Positions 23,291 through 51,861 are shown, numbered from the stretch's first letter. The stretch is 64,000 nucleotides of DNA from Clostridia bacterium (GCA_044426345.1 JAWXUP010000002.1:32017-96016), one strand, 5' to 3'. Numbers and translations: made by a program. Notes: generated by a model from the sequence alone, not told the origin.

Positions 23291-23393
23291 GCTCACTCCG
23301 TTAAAATAAAATTTTGCCACCTATCTCTTAGAGGGAGGATTTTTCCCTTGGCTCCCTGTCGAGGGAGCTGTCGTCGCAATGACTGAGGGAGTT
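23291..23393 (-). repeat. Decayed copy of the GGGAG/CTCCC multi-hairpin element (module C)
   Basis: Its reverse complement aligns along its length with 50280-50387 (AACTCCCTCAGTCA..GCTCCCTCG..AGGGAGCCAAGG..CCTCCCT..GGTGGCAAAAT..ACGGAG). Confidence 0.8.
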
Positions 23394-23417: not shown

Positions 23418-23733
23418 TGTAGGGGCGAACTGCGTTCGTCCGTTTCATTATATAAAATACCACATAATAAAAAACATCGAATTTGTAGGGTACGGCGTCC
23501 TCGACGTACCGTTTGCCATATAATAAATTTGCACCATTTCAATTTTAATCGGACGTATTGATTTCGACGGGCGAACGCAGTTCGCCCCTACAGATAAATG
23601 GTGGTTTTGCAATTAATTTGAACAAATTTTATTATGTGCACGGGTCGTCGAGGACGCCGACCCCTACTGGTAACATTATTTTTTATATGGTTATATTTTA
23701 TTACACGGCACGGGCGAACACTGTTCGCCCCTA
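23418..23733. repeat. REP cluster of five hairpin modules in the divergent yqfC/ylbJ region
   Basis: Type-1 forward 23418-23442, type-2 forward 23484-23511, type-1 inverted 23566-23590, type-2 variant inverted 23639-23666, type-1 inverted 23709-23733. Confidence 0.9.
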
Positions 23734-48544: not shown

Positions 48545-50149
48545 ATGACAAAATACATATTTGTAACCGGTGGTGTTGTATCCGGACTTGGAAAAGGAAT
48601 TACAGCAGCAGCTCTTGGTAGACTGCTTAAACAACGTGGCTTTAAAGTTGCTGCACAAAAATTAGACCCATATATGAACGTAGACCCAGGTACTATGAGT
48701 CCGTTCCAACACGGTGAAGTTTTCGTTACTGACGATGGTGGAGAAACAGACTTGGATTTAGGTCACTACGAACGTTTTATAGATGAAAACTTAACTAAAT
48801 TCTCAAATTTAACTTCTGGTAAAGTGTATTTCAGCGTACTTGCACGTGAACGTTCTGGAGGATATTTGGGAGAAACTGTACAAGTTATCCCTCATATCAC
48901 AAATGAAATCAAAGACTTTATTTACAAAGCAGCTGAAAAAACTTCTGCTGATATATTAATCACAGAAATCGGTGGTACAACTGGTGATATCGAAAGCCAA
49001 CCATTCTTAGAAACAATCCGTCAAATTTCTATCGAAAAAGGTAGAGAAAACTGCTTATTTATACACGTTGCTCTTGTACCATACCTTAAAGGTTCTGGTG
49101 AACACAAGTCAAAACCTGCACAACATTCTGTTAAAGAACTTCGTGGTATTGGTATTTCACCTAATATTATTGTAGCACGTGCTGACGAGCCATTAAGTCA
49201 CGGAATAGCTGATAAAATTGCACTATTTTGTAACGTTAAACCAGATTGTGTTATCGAAAATATTACACTTCCATCATTATATGAAGCACCACTTATGTTA
49301 CACGAAAACGGTTTAGACGAAGTGGTTTGTCGTGAATTGAATTTACAATGTAAAGAACCAGACCTTACTGAATGGAGAAATCTGTGCAGAAAAGTTAATG
49401 AAGTTTCAGGCGAAGTTACAATTGCCATCGTTGGTAAATATGTTCAACTTCACGATGCTTATCTTTCTGTTATGGAAAGTTTACGTCACGCCGGAATAGA
49501 TGCTGGTTACTCTGTAAACTTAAAATGGGTAGACAGCGAAACTGTAACAGATGAAAATTCTGCTGAACTTTTTGCAGATATCGACGGTATGGTTATTCCA
49601 GGTGGATTTGGTGATAGAGGTATTGAAGGTAAAATTTCTGCTTGTAAATATGTTCGTGAAAATAATGTACCTTTCCTTGGAATTTGTTTAGGTATGCAAA
49701 TTACTGTTATTGAATATGCACGTCACGTTTTAGGACTTTCTGATGCACATTCTGCAGAATTTTCACAAACAACAACTAACCCTGTAATCCATATTATGGA
49801 AGACCAAATTGCAATTACAAATAAAGGTGGCACAATGCGACTTGGCGCATATCCTTGTAAAGTTTCAGAAGGAACATTACTTAAAGAATTGTACGGTGAA
49901 AATATGATTTCAGAACGTCACCGTCATAGATATGAATTTAACAACGATTACCGTGAAAAATTAGAACAAACTGGTTTTGTAATTTCTGGTACATCGCCTG
50001 ATAATAACTTGGTTGAAGCTATTGAAATACCAGCAAATGATTATTTCGTAGCGGCTCAATTCCACCCGGAATTTAAAAGCAGACCAAACAAACCACACCC
50101 ACTTTTCAAAGGCTTGATTAACGCAGCTATTAAAGCTAAAAACGCGTAG
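48545..50149 (+). CDS. pyrG: CTP synthase
   Basis: [17 protein letters not shown]-terminus and GATase active site GICLGMQ. Confidence 0.97.
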
Positions 50150-50165
50150 GAAATAAATATTTTCT

Positions 50166-50520
50166 GTAGGCTATGTTCTTACGTGACACGAAATAAAATG
50201 TAAATGCACTTTGTAGGGTACGGCGTCCTCGACGTACCGTGGTACGCAACCTAAGTATTATCGTGCAAAAATATCGTGTAAACTCCCTCAGTCACTGCGG
50301 TGACAGCTCCCTCGGAGAGGGAGCCAAGGAAAAAAGCCTCCCTGTCGAGGGAGGTGGCAAAATCTTTGATTTTGACGGAGGGAGTTTACACGCAATAAAA
50401 TATCAATGCACTTTGTAGGGTACGGCGTCCTCGACGTACCGTGTACGCAACCTAAGTATTACCGTGCAAAAATCAAAATCAACGCACAAAATATGACGGA
50501 CGAACACAGTTCGCCCCTAC
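50166..50520. repeat. REP mosaic with a roughly 202-bp direct duplication flanking module C
   Basis: Decayed type-1 copy at 50166. Type-2 GTAGGGTACGGCGTCCTCGACGTACCGT at 50213 and 50415, each with about 45 nt of identical flank. Type-1 inverted copy ends at 50520. Confidence 0.9.
50280..50387 (+). repeat. Module C: a roughly 108-nt GGGAG/CTCCC multi-hairpin element (candidate structured RNA or MITE)
   Basis: Closing helix AAACTCCCTC/GAGGGAGTTT encloses four hairpins: GTCAC-TGCG-GTGAC, GCTCCCT-CGGAG-AGGGAGC, CCTCCCT-GTCG-AGGGAGG, CAAAATC-TTT-GATTTTG. Confidence 0.7.
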
Positions 50521-50619
50521 AAATTTATTGATTTTTCGTGATAAAGCGTGAAAATGCACAAAAAATGCGTATTACCTTTAGCTAACTTGAGCGAAAACAT
50601 AGAATTTCAATTAAAGTTA

Positions 50620-50648
50620 TTGTATAAAAATAAAAAAAGTGGTATAAT
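50620..50648 (+). promoter_or_regulatory. Sigma-A promoter of dapL
   Basis: TTGTAT-17 nt-TATAAT with a TG extended -10. Confidence 0.6.
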
Positions 50649-50679
50649 ATTCTAAAATAATCAATTTACGGAGGAAAAA

Positions 50680-51861
50680 ATGAAAATTAACCAAAATTAT
50701 AAAAATTTAAAAGATAGCTATCTTTTTTCTACTATCGCGTCAAAAGTACGTGAATTCTCAGCTGCAAACCCTGATAAAAAAGTTATCAGACTTGGTATCG
50801 GCGACGTAACTCGTCCTCTCGCTCCAGTTGTAATCGAAGCTATGCACAAAGCTGTTGATGAAATGGGTGTTAAAGAAACTTTCAAAGGTTATGGCGATGA
50901 ACAAGGTTACGGTTTCTTACAAGAAGCAATACAAACTTACTACGCTAAAAAAGAAGTTTCTTTAGATTTATCTGAAATTTTCATCAGTGATGGTGCAAAA
51001 AGCGATTTAGGTAACATTCTTGATATTTTAGATGTTGACAACGTTGTTTTAGTACCAGACCCAGTATATCCTGTTTATGTTGACACAAACATTATGGCTG
51101 GCAGAAAAACAATTTTTATGGACGGTAACACAGAAAATAGTTTCCTTCCAATGCCAGATTACGCTGTAGATTGCGATATTATCTATCTTTGTTCTCCAAA
51201 CAACCCAACTGGTGGTGTTTATAATAAAGATGGCTTAAAAGCTTGGGTTGATTATGCTATTGCTAAAAATGCAGTAATTTTATTCGACTGTGCTTACGAA
51301 ATCTTTATTTCTGACGAATCTCTTCCTACAAGCATTTACCAAATCGAAGGTGCTGAAAAATGTGCTATCGAATTCTGTTCATTCTCTAAAACTGCTGGTT
51401 TTACTGGTGTTAGATGTGGTTATACTGTAGTTCCAAACGCACTAGTATTTGATGATACAAAACTTAACAAATTATGGTTACGTCGTCAAACTACAAAATT
51501 CAATGGTGTACCTTACATCGTTCAATGTGGTGCTGCTGCTGTATTTACAGAAACAGGTATTGCTCAAATTAAAGAAAGCGTTGACTACTATATGGCAAAC
51601 GCACAAATCATCGCTAAAACACTTACTGAAATGGGTATGTGGTTCATCGGTGGTGACAATTCTCCATACATCTGGTTAAAATGCCCAGGTGGTATGACTT
51701 CTTGGGAATTCTTCGATTTCCTACTTGAAAATGCAAACGTTGTTGGTACTCCAGGTGCTGGTTTTGGCGAAAAAGGTGAAGGTTTCTTCCGTTTAACTGC
51801 TTTCGGTGAAAAAGAAAACGTTATCGAAGCTATGGAAAGATTTAAAAAATTACAATTTTAA
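50680..51861 (+). CDS. dapL: LL-diaminopimelate aminotransferase
   Basis: N-terminus [35 protein letters not shown], and PLP-lysine context [12 protein letters not shown]. Confidence 0.88.

Follow-up and report, generated by a model that had tools for sequence, protein, structure and literature searches.

Module C is a palindromic element of approximately 108 nt located between pyrG and an aminotransferase gene of a Clostridia bacterium. We analyzed it within a stretch of 64,000 nt (GCA_044426345.1 JAWXUP010000002.1:32017-96016; hereafter the window, with positions counted from its first letter), which corresponds to contig C98 of a 2.95-Mb genome with 34% GC and 168 contigs. The spacer between the two genes (window 50150-50679) has a length of 530 bp and contains a mosaic of Module C and repetitive extragenic palindromic (REP) sequences. 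The same spacer has only 56-70 bp in five syntenic metagenome relatives, which show 68-70% protein identity (the best in the scan was 72% or less) and inform synteny and spacer length only. This difference in length indicates that the mosaic is lineage-specific inserted DNA and, therefore, not a conserved leader or trailer. We consider it probable that Module C is an orphan, selfish, non-autonomous DNA repeat resembling a miniature inverted-repeat transposable element (MITE) or a bacterial interspersed mosaic element (BIME), which acts at the level of DNA and is not an RNA gene. When sequences are compared, its modules are homologous to the terminal inverted repeats of DUF559 gene cassettes in related Clostridia. 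DUF559 is a Vsr-like endonuclease family of the PD-(D/E)xK type.

Structure and copies of Module C

An earlier note on this DNA, prepared from the sequence alone, proposed that 50280-50387 folds into a closing helix around four hairpins. We reproduced this structure. The minimum free energy fold of the single strand has -57.2 kcal/mol (z = -5.96; 0 of 200 dinucleotide shuffles were as stable), and the closing helix AAACTCCCTC/GAGGGAGTTT encloses hairpins 1 to 4 (Table 1). The complementary strand folds with comparable strength (-52.6 kcal/mol, z = -6.07), which hints at a DNA palindrome rather than RNA. The terminal inverted repeat, 50275-50294 with 50373-50392, comprises 20 nt at 95%, with arms exceeding the length given in the earlier note. 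The sole open reading frame (ORF) across the element is a mechanical ORF of 59 aa. Module C shares with MITEs its short length, non-coding character, multiple copies, and 20-nt termini that are 95% complementary.

A decayed, inverted second copy had also been claimed. It is present on the window's minus strand, is 84% identical to the first, and has lost pairs, with mismatches affecting both hairpins 1 and 3 (GAGATAGG in the latter) as well as the 3' arm (GGAGTGAG). The count of two copies is correct for the window but not for the genome, against which BLAST returned 74 copies of at least 60 nt, 60 of them full length; homologues were also found in related Clostridia. Nearly every copy is intergenic. 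The median pairwise identity of the core is 86%, and several pairs at separate loci are 98-100% identical. Repeats of this type break short-read assemblies, with many copies located at contig ends, and create spurious small ORFs.

The proposal that Module C constitutes a separate repeat family within REP mosaics was borne out. A GTAG-type REP lies within 60 nt of 43 of 58 copies, and a subfamily of approximately 30 copies is always located between REP units, with tandem units of REP plus element recurring at times at a spacing of approximately 178 nt. Approximately 15 copies reside in unique DNA. Therefore, the unit formed by a left (L) and a right (R) half-module is a discrete entity. L-R is the arrangement of nearly all modules in this genome (43 pairs).

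The three CTCCCTC-type blocks vary hardly at all among the genomic copies; the loops and the A-rich linker drift, and the linker also varies in length. Hairpin 1 is 99% paired, with double changes at three of its five pairs (UA to GC four times, AU to GC three times, and CG to UA seven times), and compensatory changes are also present in the outer stem. The covariation score of the whole structure was 0.091, compared with 0.071 ± 0.004 in shuffles, and all slid controls reached 0.052 or less. Some apparent mispairs of hairpins 2 and 3 in this count arise because copies with 4-nt loops are shifted in register.

Internal-deletion or split variants are located at C59:2566-2629, C90:8225-8299, and C14:40423-40596. 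The deletion variants join two CTCCCTC cores; for example, the 5' strand of hairpin 3 is fused to the 3' arm. Such joins point to recombination or slippage among the repeated blocks of the element itself. The possibility that partial copies are the ends of a larger element was ruled out because each is either a split copy or an internal deletion between CTCCCTC cores.

Module C is located exactly between two REP type-2 units of 87 nt, which are 95-97% identical. These units bracket the element as described previously; however, the reported duplication of roughly 202 bp corresponds to their spacing (201-202 nt) and not to the length of the repeated unit. The first 5 nt (ACACG) of the right unit form the outermost pairs of the closing stem of Module C. 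The neighboring REP types 1 and 2 carry GTAG heads, whereas Module C does not. Genome-wide, at least 156 GTAG-headed REPs (TGTAGGGGCGAACnnnGTTCGCCC) and a second type (GTAGGGTACGGCGTCCTCGACGTACC) form tandem arrays with 42-47-nt spacers, and further REP sites in the window are located at 23423-23441 and 23480-23515. Despite this abundance of GTAG-type REPs, no Y1/RAYT transposase (PF01797) was found in the genome assembly.

Table 1. Window positions of Module C, its parts, and the neighboring REP sequences
Feature	Position	Strand	Basis or remark
Module C copy 1	50275..50392 (core 50280-50387)	+	Inverted repeat, fold, 100% self-match; includes complementarity of the outer 5-8 nt of the arms
L half-module	50283..50325	+	Sequence; homologues at DUF559 gene 3' ends and within L-R elements elsewhere
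L half-module, third block CTCCCTC	50283-50289	+	Sequence
L half-module, inner hairpin 1	50291-50304	+	Compensatory changes among copies
L half-module, hairpin 2 (CTCCCTC/GAGGGAG)	50306-50324	+	Sequence
A-rich linker between L and R	50326..50335	+	Length differs among copies; on the minus strand, T-run of the terminator-like site
R half-module	50336..50384	+	Sequence, half-module pattern match; homologous R modules upstream of DUF559 genes
R half-module, hairpin 3 (CCTCCCT/AGGGAGG)	50337-50354	+	Sequence
R half-module, inner hairpin 4	50358-50374	+	Sequence
R half-module, purine third block GAGGGAG	50378-50384	+	Sequence
Module C copy 2, decayed	23292..23393	-	BLAST, 83.8% identity over positions 2-105
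REP type-2 unit (GTAGGGTACGGCGTCCTCGACGTACC and flanks), left of element	50186..50272	+	Direct repeat families D1, D2
REP type-2 unit, right of element	50388..50473	+	D1, D2, inverted repeat I1
REP type-1 hairpin GGGCGAACnnnGTTCGYCC, GTAG head	50498..50516	-	Family of at least 156 copies

Half-modules and the mirror third block

Each half-module has a length of approximately 45 nt. L consists of CTCCCTC, AGTC, hairpin 1, GACAG, a CTCCCTC-loop-GAGGGAG hairpin, and CC, while R consists of G, a CCTCCCTC-loop-GAGGGAGG hairpin, TGGC, hairpin 4, GAC, and GGAGGGAG. R is an inverted paralogue of L, and the halves adjoin hairpin to hairpin via the short variable linker. On its purine strand (minus for L and plus for R), either half reads as C-stem, loop, G-stem, inner hairpin, and G-block. 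The pattern CTCCN{4,12}RRRRRGSTGKCN{8,28}CKGRRGR matched 119 half-modules in the genome and none in a reversed-sequence control. A MAFFT alignment of half-modules was off the structural register, and this IUPAC pattern with its control was used for counting. Among half-modules from many genomes, L and R consistently differ at one position of the inner hairpin base, which is TGTC...GAC with a T-A pair in L and TGGC...GAC with a conserved G-A mismatch in R. This difference may serve as a basis for telling the two ends apart.

The earlier note proposed three interchangeable CTCCCT/AGGGAG helices with possible alternative pairings. Only a core that is not self-symmetric discriminates between the possibilities: a direct repeat provides an alternative Watson-Crick partner, whereas a mirror repeat permits an intrastrand triplex (H-DNA-like). 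The cores of relatives differ (CTCCCTC, CTCCTT, CCCTCC, and CCCCCTC), and the three blocks of a module change together. The comparison covered more than 100 metagenome-assembled genomes of Clostridia and one Bifidobacterium. Among unique variants, the third block fitted the mirror relation over the direct one by 21:0 in L (38 ties) and by 24:5 in R (16 ties), and several of the five direct-fit R cases are parsing artefacts. An example of the mirror from relatives is AAAGGAGGG...GGGAGGA. The mean mirror match was 6.44 nt vs 5.30 nt for the direct match (T opposite A allowed). When arms were paired with the hairpins of other elements, the match was 5.10 ± 0.135, and none of 2000 permutations reached 6.44.

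Since the third block mirrors the purine strand of the hairpin, it cannot swap Watson-Crick partners, and the interchangeable helices were not supported. Neither Watson-Crick folding nor a dimer that binds duplex DNA gives meaning to a mirror repeat on one strand, which is the hallmark of triplex-forming DNA. Judging from the sequences, the mirror relation is consistent with a BoxC/PIT/TMECO-type intrastrand DNA triplex and not with interchangeable Watson-Crick helices. The purine strand of each module, when single-stranded, could fold into a compact intrastrand triplex-type structure.

The inner hairpins also have the character of DNA. All 167 collected half-modules fold into two hairpins with DNA parameters, and their inner stems comprise 76 distinct sequences. 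The inner loops are closed by C-G in 143 of the 167 and are C-GNA-G triloops in 80. GCGNAGC, which is termed an "extraordinarily stable mini-hairpin DNA" in PMC13037366, was found on the purine strand in 46 cases and on the complement in one; the counts for CGNAG were 108 and 17, respectively. The presence of GNA loops on the purine strand of each module argues for folding as DNA and not as RNA. Moreover, the purine strands of L and R lie on opposite DNA strands, and, thus, no single transcript bears both sets of loops. The copies in this genome have drifted from GNA loops and have CGCA and TTT loops.

BoxC/PIT/TMECO repeats have been described in E. coli and other Proteobacteria (Holder et al. 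2015, PMC4666352, citing Hoyne et al. 2000 and the BoxC papers of the 1990s). TMECO is defined as CCCTCNCCC-N3-6-GGGNGAGGG-N3-GGGNGAGGG and is intergenic and multi-copy, with paired inverted types (PMC4666352). Module C resembles TMECO in several respects. Three blocks, a C-rich stem, a G-rich stem, and a second G-rich block, follow one another in the same order on the same strand, and the third is triplex-compatible with the purine strand of the hairpin. Both repeats are short, intergenic, and multi-copy, with conserved stems, variable loops, and copy numbers that differ sharply between related genomes. Both form inverted pairs of two subtypes, always type A with type B in E. coli and L with R here, and the E. 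coli K-12 DUF559 gene ycjD adjoins a TMECO copy. However, the core of Module C is CTCCCTC/GAGGGAG and that of TMECO CCCTCNCCC/GGGNGAGGG. The second "loop" of Module C is a covarying hairpin of 15-30 nt, often GCGNAGC, vs 3 nt in TMECO, and Module C-type repeats reside in Clostridia and Bifidobacterium rather than Proteobacteria. Furthermore, Module C fuses both modules into a single palindromic unit with paired third blocks. Because the sequence of Module C lies outside the TMECO definition and a hairpin takes the place of the second loop, we regard Module C as a variant of this architecture and not as a member of TMECO. It would escape a triplex search that, like ITxF, allows only loops of 1-6 nt.

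DUF559 cassettes and distribution in relatives

Homologues of the modules have a patchy distribution in the same genus, family, and order, where L and R are found singly, joined as L-R, or in the permuted form R-X-L. A pattern scan with one genome per species identified the L-R form in more than 117 contigs, a count that is a lower bound. Among the matches listed, nearly all were from uncultured Oscillospiraceae, Ruminococcus, Acutalibacteraceae, and other Clostridia of guts and rumens. L-R elements were also present in Actinomycetota, namely, Bifidobacterium felsineum (L135, NZ_PEBJ01000001.1) and Bifidobacteriaceae (L086 and L158), which implies transfer across phyla or very old ancestry. 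The linkers in other genomes are 4-30 nt of unrelated sequence, mostly without an A/T run. In metagenome-assembled genomes of Ruminococcus (L094, L113, L121, L124, L125, and L189), the L-R unit is the center of a much longer palindrome, in which the flanks CCACTATCCACAACTTAAG / CTTAAGTTGTGGATAGTGG are inverted repeats and approximately 19 extra nt are present at the termini. These inverted flanks indicate that the terminal extension beyond the modules is lineage-specific.

In one relative (G036), an ORF of 133 aa lies between an R module and an L module as a single unit. This ORF matches PF04480 (E = 8e-28) and reads through L, and the purine third block of R is located 5-8 nt before the ATG. 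Cassette loci comprise L043/L070 (G036:C53), L073, L054-L057, L061, L064, and L069. In these loci, the upstream module's purine third block (GGAGGG...), at this same distance from the ATG, also serves as the Shine-Dalgarno sequence, and the last approximately 15 codons of the ORF are encoded by the downstream module (...SLPQSATLTAPSSEGA). The remark in the earlier note that AGGGAGG resembles a Shine-Dalgarno sequence is apt for relatives, in which a DUF559 start codon follows the 3' arm, but not for this genome, in which no ORF follows.

DUF559 was present in 27 of 121 sampled genomes of the order. By eye, almost all of the 30 DUF559 loci are flanked on one or both sides by modules with their third blocks facing the gene; a strict structural rule identified a flanking module at 19 of the 30 genes and modules on both sides at 10. 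Modules and gene also co-occur. At least five modules were detected in 16 of 27 genomes with DUF559 and 5 of 94 without it (Fisher p = 4e-9), and at least 15 modules in 11 of 27 and 3 of 94, respectively (p = 2e-6). At the genus level, 13 of 22 DUF559-positive and 3 of 65 DUF559-negative genera were module-rich (p = 2e-7). DUF559 was the only gene recurrently framed by modules in the 121 genomes.

Solo modules share their outer hairpin and loop with the cassette of their own genome (in G115, CTCCCTC-TGAC-GAGGGAG in both), and the extension beyond the arms (e.g., ACAAT/ATTGT) is the same in the L-R and cassette forms of relatives. The two forms look as if they were cuts of one circle or concatemer. 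We regard it as conceivable, but doubtful, that L-R units and R-DUF559-L cassettes are two linear "cuts" of one family whose triplex and mini-hairpin ends are recognized by DUF559.

In E. coli K-12, a canonical TMECO (CCCCTCGCCCCTCTGGGGAGAGGGTTAGGGTGAGGGG) is located approximately 170 nt downstream of ycjD (L282, 1351.0-1351.8 kb). A partial duplicate of the 3' end of ycjD precedes this TMECO, and the 3' end of ycjD itself has a degenerate copy. In the literature, we found no paper linking BoxC with ycjD/DUF559 or DUF559 with flanking inverted repeats.

Origin and possible roles of Module C

The family was most likely seeded and spread by a DUF559-type structure-specific nuclease, which would cleave at the folded ends and allow copying through repair. 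The nuclease gene of this genome would then be gone or unassembled, and the L-R units would persist as orphans that may still be duplicated together with REP arrays by recombination or slippage. We infer both the dependence on a nuclease and this mode of copying. At Module C itself, no DUF559 cassette is present; there is no ORF, and the modules are joined with their hairpin sides adjacent. No autonomous parent with Module C termini was found in this genome in searches of DUF559, Y1, and arms-inward module pairs, and the latter, searched for a cargo gene, enclosed only REP spacers of approximately 80 nt or unrelated genes.

Several observations weigh against this interpretation. This genome has the most half-modules (119) of the 121 sampled, but no DUF559 by hidden Markov model search, and a tblastn search for relics with DUF559 proteins from 15 relatives yielded only noise (best E = 0.086). 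Other module-bearing genomes also lack DUF559, namely, G073 (33 modules), G102 (70 modules; 75% complete), and G011; in G002, of the same genus, the domain occurs only inside a frame of 1697 aa. Since genomes without DUF559 keep their modules, the nuclease is not needed for persistence, and, given the near-identical copies here, it is perhaps not needed even for multiplication. L-R is the inside-out form of the cassette (R-ORF-L) and is, therefore, not a simple deletion derivative of it. The CTCCCTC core of this genome is self-symmetric, and the mirror rule rests on relatives. PMC4666352 reports that footprinting of E. coli TMECO gave no support for a stable triplex in vivo. In addition, no target-site duplication or empty site was definable for Module C: the flanks of solo copies are AT-rich and alike on both sides (AATAAAAT type) with no clean duplication, and REP-REP spacers without the element are too diverged to define boundaries or a target duplication. 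An exact-protein look-up of the downstream gene, aimed at strain-level empty sites, found nothing.

The orientation of the element relative to genes was also considered. Where tandem genes flank the element in this genome, it shares their orientation by 31:6 (p = 4e-5), and the upstream gene is co-oriented in 42 of 54 copies (p = 5e-5). A replication-strand cause was rejected because agreement with GC skew was only 35:25. No orientation bias was observed in other genomes (24:27), and E. coli TMECO has none (PMC4666352). A terminator-like site, CCTCCCTCGACAGGGAGG followed by CTTTTTTCCT (hairpin plus T6, consensus match), is present at 50354-50337 on the minus strand only. This site faces away from genes in the favored orientation, and we, therefore, interpret the bias as selection against polar insertions; the minus-strand hairpin and T-run would be the target of this selection. 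An outward-facing promoter-like match (TTGACG-18-TAAAAT, 10/12) at 50372-50401 on the plus strand consists of the right end of hairpin 4 and the conserved flank ...GCACGCAATAAAAT. The same flank motif starts the REP type-2 unit at 50186, where Module C is absent.

These signals may instead indicate that Module C is useful to the host as DNA or RNA punctuation in the manner of E. coli REP/BIME, through termination or insulation, protection of mRNA 3' ends, or the binding of nucleoid or topoisomerase proteins. Its position downstream of co-oriented genes would suit such a role, as would the very stable structure on both strands, the terminator-like and promoter-like sites, and the near invariance of the three blocks while loops drift. 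However, in the commonest context, between co-directional genes (31 of 54), the terminator points away from both genes and is unused, which looks like avoidance. The absence of an orientation rule in other genomes, the decayed and internally deleted copies, and the syntenic relatives whose pyrG spacer manages without the element also argue against punctuation, and E. coli PIT elements are described in PMC4666352 as lacking promoter or terminator activity. We consider this explanation unlikely. Alternatively, Module C may be a classical MITE moved in trans by an ordinary transposase from the unassembled part of the genome, a phage, or a plasmid, with DUF559 genes as passengers. Terminal inverted repeats of at least 20 nt, the lineage-specific extension of the termini in Ruminococcus, the similar AT-rich flanks on both sides of many solo copies, and the near-identical copies although DUF559 is absent are consistent with this. 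Moreover, ten short unannotated contigs from human feces, labeled "Bacteriophage sp." (MT836505, MT838583, and eight others), bear single L-type modules with 80-91% identity. In contrast, the genome contains no longer element with these ends, the partial copies are internal deletions, and a plasmid search with the modules gave no match. DUF559 is also the sole gene recurrently framed, and a mirror-block rule plays no part in the way that known transposases recognize their ends. We regard movement by an ordinary transposase as rather improbable.

The earlier note also raised the possibility of a small structured RNA. A non-coding RNA of this kind, whether a small RNA or a cis-regulatory switch with alternative pairings of CTCCCT/AGGGAG resembling Shine-Dalgarno and anti-Shine-Dalgarno sequences, would account for the strong fold, the compensatory changes in hairpin 1 and the outer stem, and the strand bias relative to upstream genes in this genome, and the 3' arm is indeed the Shine-Dalgarno sequence of DUF559 in relatives. 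However, a search of the window with Rfam covariance models returned 0 matches at the gathering score, and 50100-50700 had none even at E ≤ 10. The 74 copies are dispersed beside unrelated genes, both strands fold equally well, and the alternative Watson-Crick pairings are not conserved, with third blocks that are mirror and not direct. The GNA loops on opposite strands in the two halves and the lack of an orientation rule in other genomes also do not fit a transcript. An RNA gene is, thus, very improbable, and we favor a non-autonomous repeat acting as DNA.

As such a repeat, Module C may be compared with two known groups, the REP/BIME-RAYT systems and MITEs or foldback elements (e.g., Correia, RUP, and BOX). 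Like REP/BIME and REPIN-RAYT, it forms intergenic mosaics in which short palindromic units alternate in orientation and have spacers of two kinds. In some genomes, inverted copies of the unit also enclose a single-copy gene resembling a nuclease or transposase (the logic of a REPtron), and genomes can retain the repeats after the gene is lost. It differs in the lack of a GTAG head, in its association with a DUF559 nuclease instead of a Y1 HUH transposase, and in the mirror third block and inner mini-hairpin, which have no counterpart in REPs; this genome has no RAYT, although it is full of GTAG-type REPs. Like MITEs and foldback elements, it is non-coding, intergenic, and approximately 110 nt in length, has long inverted repeats at its termini, and occurs in tens of copies, some of them internal-deletion variants. 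However, Module C has no demonstrable target-site duplication and no parent insertion sequence with the same ends, and the repeats are arranged the opposite way, inside out, in the only related unit that bears a gene.

To our knowledge, BoxC/PIT/TMECO repeats have been known for approximately 30 years without a function or partner protein, and the function of DUF559, a very large protein family, is also unknown. If L-R units and cassettes are two cuts of one family whose ends DUF559 recognizes, a second bacterial partnership between a nuclease and a repeat, independent of REP/RAYT, would exist in Clostridia, Actinomycetota, and E. coli (BoxC/ycjD). Module C would then represent a large orphan population of the non-autonomous form, still multiplying without the enzyme. 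Variation in Clostridia is rich enough to reveal selection for the mirror (triplex-type) relation and for DNA-type mini-hairpins, and not for RNA helices, and the repeats travel with DUF559 genes across genera. This genome, with the largest repeat population sampled and no nuclease gene, provides a natural test of whether the enzyme is required for the spread of these repeats or only for their founding.

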